Shown here one piece after another: positions 20,483 to 29,942 of a DNA stretch of 64,000 nt. Each line of letters starts with the position of its first letter. Position 1 is the first letter of the stretch. The notes below the pieces were generated by a model that worked only from the letters and a program-made list of their open reading frames with translations, was not told where the DNA came from and ran no database searches. A program made the translations under genes and the position numbers. Origin of the DNA: Escherichia coli. Lineage in GTDB: Bacteria; Pseudomonadota; Gammaproteobacteria; Enterobacterales; Enterobacteriaceae. Where the stretch lies: the NCBI RefSeq assembly GCF_003334315.1, contig NZ_QOWR01000018.1. One strand, given 5' to 3'.

Positions 20483-21778
20483 TTAATTTTTCATTGCTTC
20501 GTTATGGGGCATGGTTGGGGCAAACTCGCTTAACTGTGTATTTAACAAAGCTACCTGTGCATTATTGTTTTCAGACATCCATTTTCCGTATACCTGAAAT
20601 ACCATTTGCGCATCTGCATGGCCCATCTGGTTTGCTATAAATGCCGGGTTAGCACCAGCTGTCAGCGACCAGCAGGCATAAGTATGTCTCGACTGATATG
20701 ATTTTCGATGGCGGAGTCCGGCACGTTTTATCGCTGCGTCCCACATCTGCCTTATTGAGTCAACGGTAAAATGGTCACCATAATTTTTTACTCTCGCTGA
20801 CACTTCAGGTTGAAAAACAAAGGTGCATTTTTGTTTTTCTGTTCTGCCATACTCTCTGAGGTGAACATCAATGATATGCTCTTTGCTCAGTCTCGTTAAT
20901 GTCATCTGGCTCCGGAGAGCGTCGATTGCTGGCTTAATAAGATGAATGACCCGATTGGTTCCCGCCTGTGTTTTTGGTACCGTGAAACGGTCTTTTGCTA
21001 AATTTCTCCTGATCATCATTGTTCCATTTTTCAGATCTATGTCCTCCCATCCAAGTGCACACAGCTCACCAGGGCGAACGCCAGTATAAACAGAAACACA
21101 CCATAAATTTTTTGCTTGCTGATTTCTGCACGCATCGATAAGACGGATAAATTCCTCCCGCGAAAGAGGATCCGGAATGGTTCTTGATTCCTTTAATGGC
21201 GAGATCCCCTTAAGCGGATTATCTGGCAGGTAACCGTTATCAACACCAAACTGGAACACGGCGTTAAGATTTGTCATGTAATTATTTACAGTTACAGCCG
21301 ATCGCCCTGGTTGTGTAACAATATAGTTACTTTTGGGGATCTGGTATCCAGTCAGTAGCTCTTTACGAACCTCCAGTAATTTTTCTTTATTAATCGATGA
21401 GGCAAGATTTTTTTCACCGATTATGCTCAGGATATTTTTGATGACGGCACGGTATGTGTTGAGTGATGTTTTGGCGACTTCAGTTTCTTTCAGTGCCAGA
21501 AATTTTTCAGCCAGTTCTTTTATGGTTAAATCTTGTCGGGCCTCACCAAATTTTTCCAGATTGCGTGAGGAGGGAAACTGTTTTGCATAGTCGAAAACAC
21601 CAGTTTTTATTGCGTAACAAACAGAGGAGCGTAGTTCACCTGCAACGCGCCTGTTTTTTGCTGTGTCAGGAACCCCCAGATTTTCCCTGACTCTTACGCC
21701 TTTATAAACAAACCAGATACGTAATTTCCCTCCATGGTTTTCCACGCCTGTCGGATATTTCATTTCAACTTCTCTCAT
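20483..21778 (-). CDS. Phage tyrosine integrase (431 aa)
   Basis: C-terminal catalytic region with R...HxxR...Y pattern; located at the prophage edge and transcribed toward the junction. Confidence 0.85.
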   Translation of the reverse strand: MREVEMKYPTGVENHGGKLRIWFVYKGVRVRENLGVPDTAKNRRVAGELRSSVCYAIKTGVFDYAKQFPSSRNLEKFGEARQDLTIKELAEKFLALKETEVAKTSLNTYRAVIKNILSIIGEKNLASSINKEKLLEVRKELLTGYQIPKSNYIVTQPGRSAVTVNNYMTNLNAVFQFGVDNGYLPDNPLKGISPLKESRTIPDPLSREEFIRLIDACRNQQAKNLWCVSVYTGVRPGELCALGWEDIDLKNGTMMIRRNLAKDRFTVPKTQAGTNRVIHLIKPAIDALRSQMTLTRLSKEHIIDVHLREYGRTEKQKCTFVFQPEVSARVKNYGDHFTVDSIRQMWDAAIKRAGLRHRKSYQSRHTYACWSLTAGANPAFIANQMGHADAQMVFQVYGKWMSENNNAQVALLNTQLSEFAPTMPHNEAMKN

Positions 21779-21797
21779 TAGTTAGTGTGGCTTTTAG

Positions 21798-22049
21798 TCA
21801 AGTAAGATGACGTCTTGGTCTCGCTGATGCCTGGCGCTCAATCCAGCGATCAATTTCTTCCAGGTTGTAAAAGCATGGACTGTTATCCCATGGCATACCG
21901 TCATGAGCGACATGCTTATATTCCCTTCCTTCCATAAACGATTTTTCCCGGGCCTTTTTTAACGTACCTTTTTTTATTCCTTTCAGCGCAATTAACTGCT
22001 CTTCGGATACCCATTTGCCGGGAGAGACAATCATGATTACTTCGCTCAT
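21798..22049 (-). CDS. Putative excisionase / small DNA-binding protein
   Basis: Small basic ORF immediately upstream of int in the same orientation; function by position. Confidence 0.5.
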   Translation of the reverse strand: MSEVIMIVSPGKWVSEEQLIALKGIKKGTLKKAREKSFMEGREYKHVAHDGMPWDNSPCFYNLEEIDRWIERQASARPRRHLT

Positions 22050-22121
22050 CGATTTCTTTATCTCTTACATCAGACGAGCGCCGGTTGCAGAATACCAGTC
22101 ACAACCGGCGACAGTTGAACA

Positions 22122-24593
22122 TTAAGAATCAGCCTGACTCGGGATCAGTTTTTGCCAGATAACTGAAACGTATTTTGCCTGGTAACGGGCGTCATCAAGT
22201 GCATTATGGCGCTCACCTTCGAATGGAATAGCCGTTCTGGCATCGAAGTCTATGGCTTTCCCCAGCTCAACGATTGTGCGTACATCGCGATCGTTGTAGT
22301 AACGCCACGGGCAGGGGATCCCCTGCCGTTCGTATGAACGGCGCAAAATCGTGTTGTCGAAGTTGGCTCCATTTCCCCAAACCTGAACAAAAAATTCACC
22401 GGAGTTTTCGTCGATAAATTCCCGCAATTGTAACAGTGCATCATCTAACGGGATTTCATCGGTCATAATGGCAGATTGCGCTTCGCGTGATTGCTTAAGC
22501 CACCATTTAATGGTGTTCCGATCAATGACTCCGCCAGCAGTTTCCAGATCGATAGTCTTACTAAATTCCGGTCCCATATCTCCGGTTTGCGGATCGAAAA
22601 ATATTGCACCTATTGAGATGATCGGGGCATCAGGATTTTTTCCCATGGTTTCAAGGTCGATCATTAGATGGTCACACGTCCTGCTGGTGGATGTGATTTC
22701 GTGATGACCGTTCACCTTAATTGAGTGATCTGCCGTCTCGCCAGTTTCATTATCGCTATTGTGATGCTGATTGCCGCCAGTGTTCTCCTTGTGTGGATGT
22801 TCAGCGCCTTCCATTTCCTCCGGATCATCTTCCTGAACTTCAACCTGATATTCTTCATCGAATGTTTCTTGATATGTTGCGTCGCCCATCACCGCGCCAC
22901 AATCAGGGCAGTTGCCGCCGCCGGTCTGACCGCAGGCGGTGCAGACTTTTTCCACTTCCTGTTGCGCCACTGGTTCAGGCTGTTTCGTTTCTGGCTCGTT
23001 TTGTAACGCATTTGTGCTGTTTTGTTCCGCTTTTTGGTAGTTCCGTTCCGATTTATGCTGGTTCTGGTTCACAGAATCGCGGGTCTGGATCCCCTTAACC
23101 CATTTCGGATCATTCGGGTCACTAATCCCTTCAACAAATTCACCACGTGATGCAGCAAGCAACTTATCGGCGTCAGGCTGGCTGATATTGGCTGCCTGCA
23201 TAATTTTGTTTACTTCGTCAGCGGTAACTTTTATCGGCTCTGGTTGTTCTGAATCTTCAGCGGTATCTACATTTTGCGGTAAGCCCGTGTATGTGCCATT
23301 TTTTCGGGCAAAATATTCTTCTTTTGTGATTTCAGTGGCGCCAGCAGCCAGTGCCTTATCCAGACCAGAAAGTTTGTTTGCGCGACCGTATTTTTCTCCG
23401 TCCTTATCTGCGAAGAGGAAATAGAACGGCCCCTCACGCTCTACAGATGGTTCAGCTTCCGGCGCGGTTTCATTTTTTGGGATATCAGATACCTCAGTTT
23501 CCACTGCATCAGTTTGTGTTTCTGATGACTGGAGAACATCAACAGTGCCCAGGTCTGTTTCTTCATTCTCAAACACGCCCTTTGTCGTCAGGTATTCGCA
23601 GATATATTTGTTCAGTGCTATGGGATCTTTGTGAATGTCGATCGGACGCTCACGGACAAGGCCAAAAATAGTCTGGCGGTCGTAGCGAAGGGCATCAGGC
23701 TGTTTGCGCATTGATGCCGAGATACGCTTCCAGTCTTCGCGGTCGTTGTCGATAACTTCTTTTTTTGCCCAGCGATGGATGCTGCCGTCAATGTTTCCGG
23801 CATCCACATCACCAGGCCAGAGAGCGTAGGCCAGTTCGTCATCCAGTGTTTTCCATGTCTGCTTGTATTCGCGATGAATGGCAGCAATGACCGGGCTGAT
23901 TTTTCCTGTTGAATTTTCAGTGTACTGTTGATTGGCTCTGGCGCGGGCGAGATCAACAACAGACGTGTATTTTCCGGTTTCCTTGCGTTCACCTTCGCGA
24001 CGTTTTTTCCAGATGCGCATCTCTGCCTGAATTTCGGGCCATTTAGCACCAGGAATACATTTATGCTTAACCCACCCAATGGCGTGCAACTTAAGCTCCG
24101 GATACATGGCGTTAACTTCTGGCATTTTCATCAACGCTTCAACGATATGTCCGTCGAATGTTGCCATGTCTTCCTGCAACAATTCCTGTGCGCTAATAAC
24201 CATATCAACGGTGATGTTTTCACATGTGTCGAACTTAACCATGACAGCGTTCTGTACTTCAGGGGCCAGCTTGTCAAAAGTGACGTTCATCGGATCGGAT
24301 TCAGTCTCAACCGGGACAAAAGAAGCAGACTCCTCATCCCAGCGGTTTTCCTGCATATATTCAGCATCCCATGAATCGAGGGCAGGGCGGGGTATGCCAG
24401 GTTTATCCTCGCAGACAATAAATTTATAAGCGCAGTCCTGAGCAGCCGGATAATGTTCCAGGAACTGCCAGTGAAATTTTGCTCGAGCACGGCGTTCGTC
24501 GCCAGCTTCAATGGCTGTGGCTACAGCCACAGCGCCTTCTTCCCTTGTTGCCAGTTCGTCAGGAATAGCGGCGCAAATAAAGACTTTACTCAT
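22122..24593 (-). CDS. Large prophage exonuclease (823 aa) with C-terminal DnaQ-like DEDDh 3'-5' exonuclease domain
   Basis: C-terminal motifs MIDLETMG ... HNALDDARYQAKY; central acidic low-complexity linker with a CxxC...CPDCG zinc ribbon; a central stretch resembles RecE as I recall it. Confidence 0.6.
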   Translation of the reverse strand: MSKVFICAAIPDELATREEGAVAVATAIEAGDERRARAKFHWQFLEHYPAAQDCAYKFIVCEDKPGIPRPALDSWDAEYMQENRWDEESASFVPVETESDPMNVTFDKLAPEVQNAVMVKFDTCENITVDMVISAQELLQEDMATFDGHIVEALMKMPEVNAMYPELKLHAIGWVKHKCIPGAKWPEIQAEMRIWKKRREGERKETGKYTSVVDLARARANQQYTENSTGKISPVIAAIHREYKQTWKTLDDELAYALWPGDVDAGNIDGSIHRWAKKEVIDNDREDWKRISASMRKQPDALRYDRQTIFGLVRERPIDIHKDPIALNKYICEYLTTKGVFENEETDLGTVDVLQSSETQTDAVETEVSDIPKNETAPEAEPSVEREGPFYFLFADKDGEKYGRANKLSGLDKALAAGATEITKEEYFARKNGTYTGLPQNVDTAEDSEQPEPIKVTADEVNKIMQAANISQPDADKLLAASRGEFVEGISDPNDPKWVKGIQTRDSVNQNQHKSERNYQKAEQNSTNALQNEPETKQPEPVAQQEVEKVCTACGQTGGGNCPDCGAVMGDATYQETFDEEYQVEVQEDDPEEMEGAEHPHKENTGGNQHHNSDNETGETADHSIKVNGHHEITSTSRTCDHLMIDLETMGKNPDAPIISIGAIFFDPQTGDMGPEFSKTIDLETAGGVIDRNTIKWWLKQSREAQSAIMTDEIPLDDALLQLREFIDENSGEFFVQVWGNGANFDNTILRRSYERQGIPCPWRYYNDRDVRTIVELGKAIDFDARTAIPFEGERHNALDDARYQAKYVSVIWQKLIPSQADS

Positions 24594-24686
24594 TTTGTTT
24601 TAACCTCATGACAGATTTAAGGATGAACAAATCCCTGCCATTGCTGGCATATAAGAATGAAACCGGATATTTATTACGGAACTGTT

Positions 24687-24878
24687 TTAAAGACCTGCCG
24701 GGATTTCGATATTATCCTGGTGAATAACTTTATCGACCGGGTAACAGTTACCGGGAATTTTCTGTTCGGTTGCTGCAGTCATACACTCCTGCATTGTCCT
24801 GTGAACACTGACTGCAATATCAACTGGCTCTCCGGAAACAAGAAAAACTGTCAGAACAAGCGCAAATGCTGAATTCAT
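24687..24878 (-). CDS. ydfD: YdfD-like small lysis/membrane protein (63 aa)
   Basis: Start ATG overlaps the dicB stop (ATGA); N-terminal hydrophobic segment; matches Qin ydfD as I recall it. Confidence 0.65.
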   Translation of the reverse strand: MNSAFALVLTVFLVSGEPVDIAVSVHRTMQECMTAATEQKIPGNCYPVDKVIHQDNIEIPAGL

Positions 24879-25063
24879 TGTGCACATCCTTTTGGCATCA
24901 GACGTAAACGAGCCAGCATTGAAACAATGCATATTTTATTTAATAGCTCCCGTTCTTGTTTTCTCTTGTTAATGGCATCTTCAGTAAATACAGGGTTACT
25001 GATAGTGACACCAATTTCAAAACAACCTTCAGACGTATTAACGTTTGGTAATAACGTTTTCAT
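24875..25063 (-). CDS. dicB: Cell division inhibitor DicB (62 aa)
   Basis: Translation MKTLLPNVNTSEGCFEIGVTISNPVFTEDAINKRKQERELLNKICIVSMLARLRLMPKGCAQ; SD GAGGA upstream. Confidence 0.8.
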   Translation of the reverse strand: MKTLLPNVNTSEGCFEIGVTISNPVFTEDAINKRKQERELLNKICIVSMLARLRLMPKGCAQ

Positions 25064-25235
25064 TATCGCGTCCTCAACAATGAATTTTGTGATGCAGTGC
25101 CTGGTGCCTCCAGGTGACGTTAACCAGTTAACAATTAACGCCGGATACAGAGAATCCACCCATAACACTGTTTTTGGTTTTAACTGTTCCGCGTGCGCTT
25201 AGCCGCATTCACCGCATCACAAAATTCACTTTAAA

Positions 25236-25290
25236 AACGGCGGCAGAGCAGTCACGGAGTAAAACTGATACCGCCAAACGTCACCAGAAA
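25236..25290 (-). ncRNA. dicF: DicF small regulatory RNA
   Basis: Reverse complement reads TTTCTGGTGACGTTTGGCGGTATCAGTTTTACTCCGTGACTGCTCTGCCGCCG followed by a T-run, matching DicF as I recall it; lies between the ydfA/B/C-like ORFs and dicB as in Qin. Confidence 0.7.
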
Positions 25291-25565
25291 ATTGATAACA
25301 GAGGGCGTTGCAGCGGGGTTGTCACTTAAGCGTATGGTCAACCTGACAACTCGGTGTCCTCAACGGGGAAGGAATAACCCCGCCATACTTACCGCCGCGC
25401 CATTTCGCGGGTTGCCACAACCGGAAGCGCACGGTCGAATTAAATTTAACGACACCGTACAGTGAGACGAACTTCGCCGTGCGCTTTCGTGTTGTGTGCC
25501 TGCTTTTAACCACGTCAGGCGAGGTGGTATCCTTCTTATTCCGAATAACCAAGAAGGAAATCTAT

Positions 25566-25766
25566 ATGACTAAAGAAGAATTTGTCTCTTATATTTTTGA
25601 TAAAACGGTTGAAATGTATGCCGCTACTTACGGGTCCTGTAATCCTCTGAATAAACCAGAGGGGAAAGATGATTTCGACAAAATTTACCGCTTCTTGGAG
25701 GACCGCTATATCAAAAGGTTAGAGGACGCAGGGATCAAATCCCCAGTGAAGTCACCATTGTCCTGA
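25566..25766 (+). CDS. Hypothetical 66-aa protein on the strand opposite the early-left operon
   Basis: ATG preceded by AAGGAA SD; no recognisable family. Confidence 0.4.
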   Translation: MTKEEFVSYIFDKTVEMYAATYGSCNPLNKPEGKDDFDKIYRFLEDRYIKRLEDAGIKSPVKSPLS

Positions 25767-26112
25767 GAACTTGCAGGACGTCATGATCGTAACTTCCATC
25801 CAAACCGCGACGGCAAATTGCTTCTCGTATTACCGGAAGCAGTTCGCTGGAAATCTCGGTGCATATTTCACCTGCTAATACGCCTGGCTCAAGTGAGAAT
25901 ATTGGTGAACTTACGGTCTTGGTCTCGACAGTTTCAGAGTCAGTGCCAACATTATAAAGCTCAACGAAAGCGGTCTTGATTTTCCGGGCCAGATCTTTTG
26001 CTGGCTCGCTTGCAATATCTTTCCCGATTTCTCGCAGCACAGAATGCAATGTATGAGCTGCTGTTTTCTGTACATCAGACGGTAAATCTTTAAATTCCAT
26101 CGTCAGCCTCAT
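25735..26112 (-). CDS. Hypothetical early-left protein (YdfB/YdfC position)
   Basis: ORF between the ydfA-like gene and dicF; start uncertain (MEFKDLP likely). Confidence 0.45.
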   Translation of the reverse strand: MRLTMEFKDLPSDVQKTAAHTLHSVLREIGKDIASEPAKDLARKIKTAFVELYNVGTDSETVETKTVSSPIFSLEPGVLAGEICTEISSELLPVIREAICRRGLDGSYDHDVLQVLRTMVTSLGI

Positions 26113-26264
26113 CAGTCAGTGTTTCTGGCTAACCAGCAACGCGCGCCAGATTCGGTTTTAAACGTTTTGCTTTTGGTATATGTCATCGCGGTGAACGTAC
26201 CGTCCTGGTTGGGGAACACGCCACATACCAGAGATTCGCTGTTGCCAAGATCGATAGTATCCAT
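26112..26264 (-). CDS. ydfA: YdfA-like small protein (50 aa)
   Basis: MDTIDLGNSESLVCGVFPNQDGTFTAMTYTKSKTFKTESGARCWLARNTD; first gene of the leftward operon downstream of the repressor. Confidence 0.65.
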   Translation of the reverse strand: MDTIDLGNSESLVCGVFPNQDGTFTAMTYTKSKTFKTESGARCWLARNTD

Positions 26265-26377
26265 GCTGACCTCATTTCCCCTTAACGCCGGGGTAGCGGA
26301 ACTGTTTGCTGAGAACACCGTGCGGTGTGTTGATGGAGGTAATTTAGTTTTCTCATTATTTTTCGTCAAGGTTTTTT

Positions 26378-26416
26378 GATGAGAAAACTCAAGTATTGGC
26401 GCAAGATAAAGCCAAT
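26378..26416. promoter_or_regulatory. Candidate operator / early-left control region
   Basis: 20-bp motif TGAGAAAACTCAAGTATTGG (repeated at 26915-26934) followed by palindrome TATTGGC-N10-GCCAATA. Confidence 0.4.
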
Positions 26417-26456
26417 ACATTGAAATGTAAGGCTTTAAAATTTTGTGAAGGGATGA

Positions 26457-26864
26457 TTATTGATGCTTGTTGCGTTTGCGAGCCTCTAATAGCTCGGTGA
26501 ACAGGCGATTAAAATTCTCAACGCGGGCGCGGAGTTCGCTGAGTTGTGCTTGTTGCTCTGATTTAGGAAGTGCGCGATACAAACGCAGCATCTCTAACTC
26601 ATCTTCCGATAAGTCTAAGGCACTATCGAGTGAAACAGGGGGAGCTGGTGTTTTGTCCTCGTCGCCAAACAGTATCCAGGTTGGTGAACATTGCAATACC
26701 TCGGCGAGGCGATGCAAATTTTGCCCACGCGGGGCTGTATGGTCACTTTCCCATAATGAAATTGATGAGCCAGATACGCCAGCAGCTTTGCTTAAACCGT
26801 TTTGACTTAAGCCTACCTGCTTACGTCTTTCTCTAATGCGTTGACCTAAAGTTTTCTCGTTCAT
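26457..26864 (-). CDS. DicA-like HTH (XRE-family) prophage repressor
   Basis: MNEKTLGQRIRERRKQVGLSQNGLSKAAGVSGSSISLWE HTH and LQCSPTWILFGDEDK tail, closely resembling DicA. Confidence 0.85.
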   Translation of the reverse strand: MNEKTLGQRIRERRKQVGLSQNGLSKAAGVSGSSISLWESDHTAPRGQNLHRLAEVLQCSPTWILFGDEDKTPAPPVSLDSALDLSEDELEMLRLYRALPKSEQQAQLSELRARVENFNRLFTELLEARKRNKHQ

Positions 26865-26941
26865 ATTTAGATATCTTAATAACCCTTGACTTGAGATTCC
26901 TTGAGTGATTAGCATTGAGAAAACTCAATATTGGAGGTGCG

Positions 26942-27169
26942 ATGTTTAAATCAGACGTAATTAATTTTTACGGTACGAAAGCCAAAGTAGCGAAAGCTGC
27001 TGGCGTTGACCCATCTGCTGTTTCTCAATGGCAAGAGCTGGTTCCTGAAGGTCGCGCGATGCGTCTACAGGAGGCATCTGGCGGGGAGCTTCTGTATGAT
27101 CCCAAGGTTTATGACGAATATCGTAAGACGAAGCGGGCGGGGCGGTTGAACAATGAAAATCACTCCTGA
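26942..27169 (+). CDS. DicC-like Cro-type regulator
   Basis: Divergent from the repressor; ...VPEGRAMRLQEASGGELLYDPKVYDEYRKTKRAGRLNNENHS resembles DicC; GGAGG SD. Confidence 0.75.
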   Translation: MFKSDVINFYGTKAKVAKAAGVDPSAVSQWQELVPEGRAMRLQEASGGELLYDPKVYDEYRKTKRAGRLNNENHS

Positions 27170-27674
27170 ACAGGCTCGTGAGGCTCTGGATGCCTGGATA
27201 TGTCGACCAGGAATGACACAGGAGCAGGCGACGATATTAATCACTGAAGCATTCTGGGCTTTGAAAGAGCGCCCGAACATCGATGTTCAGCGTGTCACAG
27301 ATGAAGGTGGCGCGGTTGATCAGCGAGCGCTTGGCGTTAATCGAGTGAAGATATTCGAACGCTGGAAGGCTATCGACACCAGGGATAAGCGTGAAAAGTT
27401 CACGGCGCTAGTGCCTGCAATTATGGAGGCTATCCGGATTAATGATTTCAGGTTGTATCGTGAAATTAGTGACGGAAAAAGCATCACGTACATGATCGCC
27501 GGGTTAAACAAAGAATATGGCGATGTGGTGGAGTCCGGACTGCTTTTTGCTGATCCTGCCGTAGTGGATCGTGAAACTGACGAACTTATAGAAAAAGCAA
27601 TTGCTTTCAAACTTGCGTATCGACAGCAATACCAACAAAAAGCTGGATGGAATTATGAGCCTTCTTTTTGCTGA
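27153..27674 (+). CDS. Hypothetical early protein (possibly YdaT-family)
   Basis: Follows the Cro-like gene with a 17-bp overlap; family assignment by position only. Confidence 0.4.
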   Translation: MKITPEQAREALDAWICRPGMTQEQATILITEAFWALKERPNIDVQRVTDEGGAVDQRALGVNRVKIFERWKAIDTRDKREKFTALVPAIMEAIRINDFRLYREISDGKSITYMIAGLNKEYGDVVESGLLFADPAVVDRETDELIEKAIAFKLAYRQQYQQKAGWNYEPSFC

Positions 27675-28620
27675 ACGCCCACTGGTTATAAACACACAGC
27701 TTGCGATGAAGATTGGCTTAAATGAAGCCATTGTGTTGCAGCAGTTGCATTACTGGTTGAGAGATACCAATTCCGGCATGGAATGTGATGGTGTTCGCTG
27801 GATTTACAACACAACGGAACAATGGCTGGAACAGTTCCCATTCTGGTCAGAGTCAACGTTAAAGCGCGCGTTTGCAAGTCTGAAAACGCTGGGGCTTTTG
27901 CGTTGTGAAAAGCTCAATAAATCAAAGCGCGATATGACCAATTTCTACACGATCAACTATGGGAGCGAGCTTTTAGATGGTGGCAAATTGAACGAATCCA
28001 TCGGTTCAAAATGCGCCGCTCCATCAGGTCAAAATGACACGATGGAAGAGGTCAAAATGAAACGCTCCATTGGTTCAAAACGACCCAATGTCATCGGGTC
28101 AAAATGGCCTGATGATCTTACAGAGAATACAACAGAGATTACTACAGAGAATAAAAACACTTTTCGTCCGGAAGCTTCGCAACCGGACCCGCAGACCGCT
28201 GAACAGGATTTTTTAATCCGGAACCCCGACGCGGTTGTGTTTAGTGCGAAAAAACGCCAGTGGGGTAGCAGGGAGGATTTGGCGTGTGCGCAGTGGATTT
28301 GGGGGCGGATCGTGAACCTTTACGAACAGGCTGCCAGCGACGATGGAGAGATCATGCGACCAAAAGAGCCTAACTGGACAGCCTGGGCCAATGACGTGCG
28401 CACAATGCGGATGCTGGATGGCAGAAGCCACAGACAAATTTGCGAAATGTTTGGTCGGGTACAGCGAGATCCATTCTGGGTAAAAAACATCATGAGCCCG
28501 TCAAAACTCCGCGAAAAATGGGACGAACTGGTCATCCGCTTGGGACGTTCACCTGTACAGCGTTGTGTGAATCATATTTCTGAACCGGATACAGAAATTC
28601 CGCCTGGTTTCAGGGGATAA
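27655..28620 (+). CDS. Phage replication initiation / replisome organizer protein
   Basis: N-terminal winged-helix-like segment (LVINTQLAMKIGLNEAIVLQQLHYWL) typical of phage O/DnaD-like initiators; serine/threonine-rich linker; C-terminal domain. Confidence 0.6.
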   Translation: MSLLFAERPLVINTQLAMKIGLNEAIVLQQLHYWLRDTNSGMECDGVRWIYNTTEQWLEQFPFWSESTLKRAFASLKTLGLLRCEKLNKSKRDMTNFYTINYGSELLDGGKLNESIGSKCAAPSGQNDTMEEVKMKRSIGSKRPNVIGSKWPDDLTENTTEITTENKNTFRPEASQPDPQTAEQDFLIRNPDAVVFSAKKRQWGSREDLACAQWIWGRIVNLYEQAASDDGEIMRPKEPNWTAWANDVRTMRMLDGRSHRQICEMFGRVQRDPFWVKNIMSPSKLREKWDELVIRLGRSPVQRCVNHISEPDTEIPPGFRG

Positions 28621-28660
28621 GTGTTGATTTCAGGTCATGAGGTAATTTTAAGGAGGACTT

Positions 28661-29083
28661 GTGGCAAAAGTTTTTACACAGGAAGAGCGGGAAAAAATTA
28701 AAGAGCAGGTGGTCGAACTTGTGCGCCAGAGCGGTCGCGAGACATTACGACAGTTGGAAGCTAAAACAGGTGCGACAAGATATCTGATGAGCATTCTTGC
28801 CAGAGAGCTGGTTGCCAGTGGTTATGTATACAACTCCGGCTACGGGTTATTCCCGTCTGAACAGGCACGAAAGGACTGGCAAAATGCCCGCAAAAAACTC
28901 TCTAGGGCGAAGGTGAAGAAACCCGCTGTGGTTGATCCGGACCTTATCTGGTCACTACCTGATGGAGAAATACGTCGCTACGACAGTCGTCTAAACATAA
29001 TCTGTCGCGAGTGCCGGAAGAGTGAAGCTATGCAGCGTGTACTGGCTTTCTATCAGGGTAATTTTCAGGAGGCGGTACTGTGA
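28661..29083 (+). CDS. Hypothetical protein (140 aa) in the replication module
   Basis: ORF with SD; no Walker motifs, so not a DnaC-type helicase loader. Confidence 0.45.
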   Translation: MAKVFTQEEREKIKEQVVELVRQSGRETLRQLEAKTGATRYLMSILARELVASGYVYNSGYGLFPSEQARKDWQNARKKLSRAKVKKPAVVDPDLIWSLPDGEIRRYDSRLNIICRECRKSEAMQRVLAFYQGNFQEAVL

Positions 29084-29590
29084 GTGAAATTAGCTATCAG
29101 GCTTCAATTACCGCTGGCATTCGCATCAAAGGAGAGGAGCATGGAAATAAAACCAGAGGATTAGTTAAGCAATATCGTTTTATTTCCGATAAAAGAGGAT
29201 GACCCTCGTAATCAGGTTAATTTTCTTTATGAGCCATCGGAAAGACCATATTGCCATCACGCTTCTGTCCGGGTTGACGAAAAAGAGCGTCAGGTCCGCT
29301 GTAAAATCTGAGGTGCAGTTGTGGAGCCATTTGACTGGATGCTCTCTGTGGCGAAAAGAGAAACCAGACTGGCAGATGATGTAAGGCTCTTGCGCCAGGA
29401 GGAACGGGAAAGACGAAAAAATATAGAAAAGCTAATTCAGATTGAGCGTAACGGGAAAGCGCGGATACGCAGGGTGACAAAATCCAGAACTGAATAATTA
29501 AATTTAGCACTGTTAAAAATTTAATCCTTAACCGGAGGGATTTCTGCACCCTCAGAACATCAGGAGGCCGCCCGAAAGGGCGGTAGTTAA

Positions 29591-29728
29591 ATGCGAAAGT
29601 TTAAAATAATTATTGAAACGGGAATAGCCGGTGGAGATTTCGAGGATGAATTCGAAGTGGATAATGATGCGACGCCTGATGAAATACATGACGAAGCAAA
29701 AGATATTTTCTTTAACTACTGCAATTAA
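29591..29728 (+). CDS. Small acidic protein (45 aa)
   Basis: ATG after an AGGAGG-containing region with a perfect 6-bp hairpin (CCGCCC-GAAA-GGGCGG); 13 of 45 residues are D/E. Confidence 0.4.
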   Translation: MRKFKIIIETGIAGGDFEDEFEVDNDATPDEIHDEAKDIFFNYCN

Positions 29729-29765
29729 TCATATCACGAAATAAAAGACGAAGAGGAAGAACAAA

Positions 29766-29942
29766 ATGGCTGATTTTGGTTCAACTAAATACAACGTCGG
29801 TTTTGAAGAATGGCATGAACTGTTAATGGACTATGCAGAGTTACGTGGTGGCAGTGCTGCTGATGCTGAAGCATGGCGTGATGATTATGAAGCAGGAAAA
29901 ACTCCGGTCGAAGCATATTGTGATGAGTGGGGCGATGAATGA
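29766..29942 (+). CDS. Small acidic protein (58 aa)
   Basis: AAGAGGAAGA SD 6 nt upstream; about 15 of 58 residues are D/E. Confidence 0.45.
   Translation: MADFGSTKYNVGFEEWHELLMDYAELRGGSAADAEAWRDDYEAGKTPVEAYCDEWGDE

Follow-up and report, generated by a model that had tools for sequence, protein, structure and literature searches.

The subject of this analysis is a 64,000-nucleotide stretch of Escherichia coli DNA (contig NZ_QOWR01000018.1 of assembly GCF_003334315.1; the whole of this stretch is referred to below as the window), in which two copies of a short motif flank a gene for a DicA-like repressor located next to a divergent gene for a Cro/DicC-like regulator. Our comparative sequence analysis makes it highly probable that these copies are operators of the repressor encoded between them. 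As judged from the same comparisons, the architecture is that of an ordinary set of left (OL) and right (OR) operators of a DicA/DicC (P22 c2-like) immunity module, in this case with a new specificity allele. An OL/OR-type arrangement was one of two options offered in a first-pass annotation of this DNA, and it is supported by the position of the sites on the predicted promoters, by the positional homology of one of them with the Escherichia coli K-12 operator Oc, by their conservation and by their covariation with the recognition helix of the repressor.

A palindromic unit recurs around the repressor gene

Both motif copies are present where they were originally noticed (TGAGAAAACTCAAGTATTGG at 26380-26399 and TGAGAAAACTCAATATTGG at 26916-26934). 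They have in common 13 exact bases (repeat family D3), followed by a 1-base indel and then by TATTGG; because of this indel, the 20-mer occurs only once even when up to 3 mismatches are allowed. The shared core is an inverted repeat, TTGAG-AAAA-CTCAA, the overall unit being a 14-16 bp palindrome (A)TTGAG-AAAA-CTCAA(T). The inverted-repeat nature of the core was overlooked in the first-pass annotation, as was a third copy on the opposite strand (26343-26356). With the 12-mer TGAGAAAACTMA at no more than one mismatch, three matches were found in 64 kb (0.61 expected), all of them clustered around the repressor gene in a stretch of 590 bp. When 127,970 window positions were scored with a weight matrix derived exclusively from 19 sites of other genera, the same three sites took ranks 1-3 (26.2, 23.2 and 20.0 bits for the sites designated OR1, OL1 and OL2 below), the next best position scoring 13.9 bits. 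No further strong site (above 14 bits by this matrix) was detected elsewhere in the window, e.g. near the rem gene.

Probable operators and predicted promoters

The elements of the immunity region are the following:

26457-26864, minus strand: gene of the DicA-family repressor, 135 amino acids (NCBIfam model NF007257, DicA, 239 bits against a cut-off of 101, full length 1-135)
26942-27169, plus strand: gene of the Cro/DicC-like regulator, 75 amino acids (NCBIfam model NF007282, DicC, 165 bits against a cut-off of 130)
26341-26369, minus strand: predicted leftward promoter (dicBp/PL analogue), -35 TTGACG at 26369-26364, 17-nt spacer, -10 TAAATT at 26346-26341
26343-26356: OL1, TTTAGTTTTCTCAT (reverse complement ATGAGAAAACTAAA), overlapping the -10 hexamer and the spacer of the leftward promoter
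26379-26392: OL2, ATGAGAAAACTCAA, the first of the two originally noticed copies, about 10 bp upstream of the leftward -35
26886-26915, plus strand: predicted rightward promoter (dicCp/PR analogue), -35 TTGACT at 26886-26891, 18-nt spacer, -10 TAGCAT at 26910-26915
26914-26929: OR1, the 16-bp palindrome ATTGAGAAAACTCAAT, the second of the two copies, covering the -10 end and the predicted start of the cro/dicC-like promoter
26865-26880: weak OR3-like site, ATTTAGATATCTTAAT, adjoining the repressor start codon (9.3 bits, rank 15 of 127,970)
26846-26861: weak site, CTAAAGTTTTCTCGTT (reverse complement AACGAGAAAACTTTAG), within the first repressor codons (9.6 bits, rank 12)
26890-26905: OR2-like region, CTTGAGATTCCTTGAG, adjoining the rightward -35, with TTGAG half-sites in direct orientation (4.2 bits)

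Counted by side, there are two strong sites on the left; on the right, one strong site is accompanied by two weak ones (9.3-9.6 bits) and by the conserved half-sites of the OR2-like region. The -35 of the predicted leftward promoter is enclosed by OL1 and OL2, whose centres are 36 bp apart, and a spacing of 35-36 bp is also found in other genera and in K-12. OR1 immediately precedes GGAGG, the Shine-Dalgarno sequence of the cro-like gene. The suggestion that the second copy overlaps the start region of that gene has to be corrected: it occupies the promoter, the 5' leader and the Shine-Dalgarno region upstream of the ATG at 26942, outside the gene. A promoter scan (consensus only) gave the two promoters listed above as the sole sigma-70-like matches in 26000-27300; transcription is predicted to begin near 26334 (minus strand) and near 26922 (plus strand), and the rightward TTGAC is invariant in 15 of 15 aligned loci. 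The idea that the motif may control dicB/dicF expression gains support, and a putative control of dicF and dicB is proposed because OL1 and OL2 sit on the only predicted promoter upstream of ydfA-DicF-dicB.

The OR3-like site nearly matches the P22 operator consensus ATTTAAGATATCTTAAAT, and its core (26866-26879) is invariant at 14 of 14 positions among the 51 haplotypes introduced below and is kept in the genus alignment as well. The other weak site (26846-26861) is the inverted-repeat partner of OR1 (inverted repeat I13), its conservation being inseparable from coding constraint. In the OR2-like region, C(C/T)TGAG(A/T)TTCCTTG is kept across genera of the same specificity; whether it represents an operator is uncertain.

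Conservation and covariation with the recognition helix

A viral-contig search with the repressor gave only 96-100% identical copies, and diversity was taken from a protein search combined with contig look-ups (ten). Conservation within the close group was assessed on 51 distinct haplotypes of the cassette (IMG/VR contigs and reference loci), which form two clades about 90% identical to each other. In this set 12 of 14 positions are invariant in OL1, 12 of 14 in OL2 and 13 of 16 in OR1. Only 8 of the 23 positions between OL1 and OL2 are invariant, and these include the leftward -35, which is kept while the remaining spacer diverges; the same layout is seen in K-12, BL21 and strain 120.

The extension of the repeat beyond the palindrome behaves differently. 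Among the seven bases that follow OL2 and hold TATTGG, two are invariant, and in the sister clade (RM9245) the sequence is CATTTAATG after OL2 and GCCTGG after OR1, with both the repeat extension and the left arm of the adjoining palindrome (see below) lost. TATTGG seems to have separate origins at the two copies: at OR1 it leads into the Shine-Dalgarno sequence (TATTGGAGG, a feature shared with Kluyvera), and at OL2 it is part of a TGGCG element whose distance from the operator is 5 bp greater in other genera. The full 20-bp direct repeat, which the first-pass annotation had taken for the unit, was accordingly rejected as a functional entity, conservation being limited to the palindromic 14-16 bp.

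The protein search revealed repressor homologues with 60-80% identity in many Enterobacteriaceae. Seven genera were examined (Salmonella, Scandinavium, Buttiauxella, Citrobacter koseri, Klebsiella michiganensis, Enterobacter asburiae and Kluyvera), in which the recognition helix is kept as S(D/G/E)SS(I/V)SLWES in repressors 70-76% identical to the one described here. All seven have (A/C)TTGAGAAAACTCA at the OR1 position, and in six of them the left-hand pair is complete and encloses the -35. In relatives whose helix is different (YATISLWES, HSTVSLWES, HATISLWES), other palindromes occupy the same positions, and the immunity regions of K-12, BL21 and strain 120 contain no site of at least 9 bits with the matrix of this operator. 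In K. michiganensis the leftward promoter is set apart from the repressor gene by an extra gene, and the two left sites, still 35 bp from each other, are displaced along with it by about 350 bp. This insert (L091 1656-1993) holds a 67-amino-acid gene on the opposite strand, and the operator centre in this species is AAAG instead of AAAA.

Comparison with BL21, K-12 and strain 120 also delimits the exchanged segment: the left edge of the dissimilar stretch is at 26335-26347 and its right edge at 27035-27041. Carried on the swapped cassette of about 690 bp (26348-27037) are OL2, the repressor gene, the right operators, the inner half of OL1 (its type-specific part) and roughly 32 codons from the start of the cro-like gene. 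The right breakpoint (~27037) is within the cro-like gene, the remainder of which is near-identical in all types. Both originally noticed copies are inside the cassette. Such a content fits specificity determinants travelling with their proteins and argues against a junction scar.

Relationship to known immunity systems

The closest well-studied relative is the K-12 Qin prophage. The gene order (dicB, DicF, ydfA, promoter, repressor, divergent dicC) is the same, the 135-amino-acid repressor passes the DicA model, the cro-like protein passes the DicC model, and a Rem homologue is present. The components of a Qin-type DicA/DicC module that were recognized at this locus are a short repressor, a divergent DicC gene, an operator at the Oc position, operators on the dicBp side, a DicF and DicB operon, and a rem gene. 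In K-12, Oc is a 20-bp inverted repeat TTGTTAGTCATAACTAACAA in the dicA-dicC intergenic region; at high copy it titrates DicA, it gives DicA-dependent repression of a reporter in vivo that is abolished by one base change, and DicA bound to it represses dicC and activates dicA (Yun et al. 2012, PMC3441716). Operators have been described in both the dicA-dicC and the dicA-dicBp regions of K-12 (PMC10448788, citing Bejar et al. 1988). Comparison with the mapped K-12 region, which the first-pass annotation had recommended, was informative: in an alignment of 15 repressor-cro intergenic regions OR1 occupies exactly the same columns as Oc (K-12 TTGTTAGTTATGACTAACAA), just upstream of the dicC Shine-Dalgarno sequence. 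The left side is alike as well, as in K-12, BL21 and strain 120 two palindromes flank the leftward -35, each matching its own right-hand operator (TTAG-N6-CTAA types).

On the other hand, the K-12 operator is TTGTTAG-N6-CTAACAA, as compared with TTGAG-N4-CTCAA here, and the DicA helix is SHVSVSQWER rather than SGSSISLWES, the N-terminal domains being 45% identical. By residue, identity to K-12 DicA is 45% over residues 1-56 and 65% over residues 57-135. Unlike the K-12 type, the present allele resides in an mEp460-like prophage, and the same cassette is found in functional phages. The two types are expected to be heteroimmune, because K-12-type regions score nothing with the matrix of the present operator.

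The N-terminal helix-turn-helix domain of the repressor (recognition helix SGSSISLWES, GSSISL being residues 32-37) is P22 c2-like: residues 1-72 are homologous to the c2 N-terminal domain, whose structure on operator DNA is known (phmmer against PDB entries 1ADR, 2R1J and 3JXB, E-values 8e-16 to 1e-14). P22 operators consist of TTAAG half-sites with a 4-bp gap, consensus ATTTAAGATATCTTAAAT (TTAAG-ATAT-CTTAA), and a recognition-helix valine packs against each half-site (PMC5175364). The 5+4+5 geometry is the same in both systems (TTGAG-AAAA-CTCAA here, TTAAG-N4-CTTAA in P22). The strong sites described here, however, are TTGAG rather than TTAAG, the helix valine aligns with a serine (SNVAISQWE vs SGSSISLWE), and two strong left sites and one strong right site compare with three plus three in P22. 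The P22 repressor is a 216-amino-acid protein with a RecA-cleavable C-terminal domain, whereas the present one has 135 amino acids and no such domain: only helix-turn-helix Pfam families, and no peptidase family, are on record for it and its relatives. DicA likewise has no RecA-cleavable C-terminal domain (PMC10448788). The repressor probably works like P22 c2, with a different specificity.

The broader resemblance is to phage lambda, where the repressor gene is also located between operator clusters overlapping divergent early promoters, with a divergent cro, and where the operators are shared by CI and Cro (general description in PMC10448788). The present locus differs in the family and size of its repressor, in the short distance between left and right operators (only ~536 bp) and in induction, which probably proceeds by an antirepressor rather than by self-cleavage.

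Alternative explanations

Several considerations count against the assignment of these sites to the repressor, or against parts of it. Conservation alone is unable to tell repressor sites from Cro sites. In K-12 only Oc bound DicA in vivo, and the other two proposed sites did not (PMC3441716), so that the weak sites reported here may not bind the repressor either. Each of the predicted promoters matches 9 of 12 consensus positions, and the number of promoters called is not above that in shuffled sequence. Simple side-by-side cooperative binding is not assured, because the 36-bp spacing of OL1 and OL2 is not an integral number of helical turns. Finally, the operator sequence was not found in the literature searched, the only matches being unrelated human, fish and virus primers; the operator of this specificity allele has apparently not been described before.

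It is improbable, in our estimate, that the Cro/DicC-like protein or another factor is the main occupant of the sites, with the repressor acting elsewhere or indirectly. The N-terminal part of Cro is swapped together with the sites and the covariation fits Cro equally well, and the K-12 sites that failed to bind DicA point in the same direction. However, the positional homologue Oc does bind DicA, and the geometry of the sites is that of P22 c2, a solved relative of the N-terminal domain of the repressor. Since operators are shared between both proteins in lambdoid switches, a role of Cro is a refinement of repressor binding more than an alternative to it.

The other option of the first-pass annotation, a duplicated promoter-leader at a mosaic junction, would make the repeat a duplication or recombination scar with no binding function. 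The left copy is indeed within 50 bp of the left breakpoint (26335-26347), and in the present clade the direct-repeat similarity extends 6 bases beyond the palindrome. But the similarity, made up of the palindrome plus these 6 bases, extends over no more than 19-20 bp, with no relationship between the flanks or between the promoters; the extension is the poorly conserved segment described above (2 of 7 invariant, missing in RM9245) and has different neighbours at the two copies (the Shine-Dalgarno GGAGG at OR1, the conserved TGGCG element at OL2). Moreover, both copies are within the cassette 26348-27037 rather than at its edge, and a third, inverted copy exists. We consider a scar very unlikely, and an equally slim chance is given to the palindromes acting as RNA hairpins (in the cro-like mRNA leader or in the terminal part of the repressor mRNA) that affect translation or termination. 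What speaks for RNA is the position of OR1 just upstream of a Shine-Dalgarno sequence and the presence, on the repressor transcript, of a stable hairpin (-13.4 kcal/mol, z = -3.6) with the OL2 T-run behind it. Against it, the predicted rightward start is inside OR1, leaving only half of the palindrome transcribed, OL1 is in a promoter spacer and is not transcribed from that promoter, 5-bp stems with 4-nt A/T loops are weak, and the covariation tracks the recognition helix of the protein. Chance similarity, for which nothing speaks except the shortness of the motif, is the least credible explanation of all: 0 to 0.6 occurrences are expected as compared with three clustered sites, at least 6 bits separate these from the next-best position, and they are conserved across genera.

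Proposed regulatory scheme

Returning to operators of the DicA-like repressor, what we infer (with respect to actual binding, the assignment of protein to site, cooperativity and the route of induction) may be put as follows. A repressor dimer would bind the 14-16 bp palindromes, with TTGAG half-sites 4 bp apart, through its P22 c2-like N-terminal domain, each palindrome being contacted via the recognition helix. Occupation of OR1, covering the rightward -10/+1 region, would switch off the cro/dicC-like, ydaT-like and replication genes, and occupation of OL1 (-10 and spacer) and OL2 (upstream of the -35) would do the same for the leftward operon of ydfA, DicF, dicB and ydfD. This region is probably also a target of the Cro-like protein, the N-terminal DNA-binding part of which is exchanged along with the operators; the Cro-like protein may prefer the weak sites around the repressor start, lowering expression of the repressor gene. 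Because the repressor has no cleavage domain, induction would be expected via a Rem-like antirepressor, with its gene about 4.3 kb downstream of that for the Cro-like protein.

Rem is 96% identical to its K-12 counterpart in protein sequence, as compared with the 45% (N-terminal) and 65% (C-terminal) identity of the repressor to K-12 DicA, which hints that Rem may target the conserved C-terminal part of the repressor and could act across immunity types. A more speculative extension, to which we would assign a rather low probability, is that repressor oligomers bridge the OL and OR clusters (536 bp apart) via the conserved C-terminal half, forming a small loop that encloses the repressor gene and couples dicF/dicB repression to autoregulation, and that one Rem antirepressor induces several co-resident prophages of different immunity. 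The latter might happen because the C-terminal half is shared between heteroimmune alleles and Rem is 96% identical to that of K-12.

The hairpin between the repressor gene and OL2

The first-pass annotation also drew attention to a perfect palindrome following the first motif copy. It is indeed present, TATTGGC at 26394-26400 and GCCAATA at 26411-26417 being separated by 10 nucleotides, within the following stretch:

26394-26436, minus strand: hairpin-forming stretch from the repressor stop to OL2, with TATTGGC-N10-GCCAATA and an alternative stem AAAGCC/GGCTTT

As an operator or another conserved element of the operator system this palindrome was ruled out: it is clade-specific, and neither the sister clade at 90% identity (RM9245) nor other genera have its left arm. 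In RNA transcribed from the repressor gene it folds into the minimum-energy hairpin already mentioned, which is followed by AGUUUUCUC. The place of this hairpin is taken in the sister clade by the other stem (AAAGCC/GGCUUU), and further, different hairpins occur in other genera. A terminator scan of 26000-27300 called no canonical terminator, and the stem of the palindrome, A/T-rich and with a 10-nt loop, departs from the pattern of an intrinsic terminator (G+C-rich stem, short loop, T-run). Phage lambda has a terminator, t-imm, and by analogy it is plausible that the repressor transcript is terminated shortly ahead of the left operators, possibly by a clade-specific hairpin.

A conserved element GGCG-N10-(C)GCAACACATTGAA(A/T)ATGAAG was observed upstream of OL2 (window 26400-26440; L087-L096) in many genera, including heteroimmune relatives. 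It forms small hairpins and is a candidate terminator or a candidate site for another factor.

The repressor start and neighbouring genes

The gene map combines family searches with the PGAP annotation of E. coli CP53, in which the region is 100% identical. For the repressor, the start at 26864 (135 amino acids, as in PGAP) is the most likely one, rather than the upstream ATG of a 152-amino-acid open reading frame, which a mechanical list of reading frames places at 26915, inside OR1. Database proteins of 150-153 amino acids (P0003, P0004 and P0037) use the upstream start; these long forms are probably mis-called, because it is the 135-amino-acid form that aligns over its whole length with K-12 DicA and with the NCBIfam model. 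As the ATG at 26864 is not preceded by a Shine-Dalgarno sequence, the mRNA of the repressor may lack a leader, as does that of lambda cI.

The cro-like gene is divergent from the repressor gene at a distance of 77 bp, and homologues of its product carry PF14549 (P22_Cro-type). The first ~30 residues are specific to the immunity type, the rest being common with K-12 DicC. A perfect 14-nt inverted repeat (ACGCCAGCAGCTTT / AAAGCTGCTGGCGT) was noticed at 26776-26789 and 26993-27006, in the repressor and cro-like genes, respectively. Both arms encode the peptide KAAGV in the helix-turn-helix region of the two divergent genes, which could reflect chance sharing of codons, common ancestry or gene conversion.

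The other genes of the locus are:

24687-26264, minus strand: leftward operon (ydfA-like gene, gene of 121 amino acids without assigned function, DicF, dicB, ydfD)
26112-26264, minus strand: ydfA-like gene (PGAP, CP53)
25735-26100, minus strand: gene for a 121-amino-acid protein with PHROG matches and no assigned function
25238-25289, minus strand: DicF small RNA (Rfam, 72.5 bits)
24875-25063, minus strand: dicB (PGAP, CP53)
24687-24878, minus strand: ydfD (PGAP, CP53)
27153-27674, plus strand: YdaT/CII-like gene, intact in the window, 173 amino acids
31234-31482, plus strand: gene of the Rem homologue (tblastn, 96% protein identity to the K-12 Qin antirepressor Rem)

In strain CP53 the ydaT-like gene (L002 4054-5361, corresponding to approximately position 27153 of the window onward) is broken by IS5, the immunity region being otherwise 100% identical. 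Two further RNA elements were recognized in the window. A sok antitoxin RNA (30693-30867, plus strand; Rfam, 99.9 bits) implies a hok/sok-type toxin-antitoxin locus in the prophage (compare hokD in Qin). A full-length thermoregulator of the cspA 5' untranslated region (38539-38955, plus strand; Rfam, 109.8 bits) implies a gene for a cold-shock protein, the counterpart in Qin being cspB and cspF beside the Q-like antiterminator gene ydfT.

Distribution and implications

The cassette is present in 797 of 5,426 complete E. coli genomes (~15%); the functional phages mEp460_ev081 and HannyBb carry versions with 99.7% and 99.5% identity to it, respectively. About half of window positions 14000-38900 (within ~20430 to 38900) matches these phages at 96-98% identity. 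Homologues of dicB, dicF, dicAC and rem are carried by mEp460_ev081 (PMC10448788).

The architecture described here is well understood, and no new kind of mechanism is revealed by it. What the analysis provides is a comparative definition of the operator sequence and of the specificity class for an immunity type of ~15% of complete E. coli genomes and of phages mEp460_ev081 and HannyBb. It also leads to a corrected repressor start for some database entries and aids the prediction of heteroimmune Qin-like prophages. Overall, the TTAAG, TTGAG and TTAG types make up a natural set for the study of specificity change in the P22 c2-like recognition helix.

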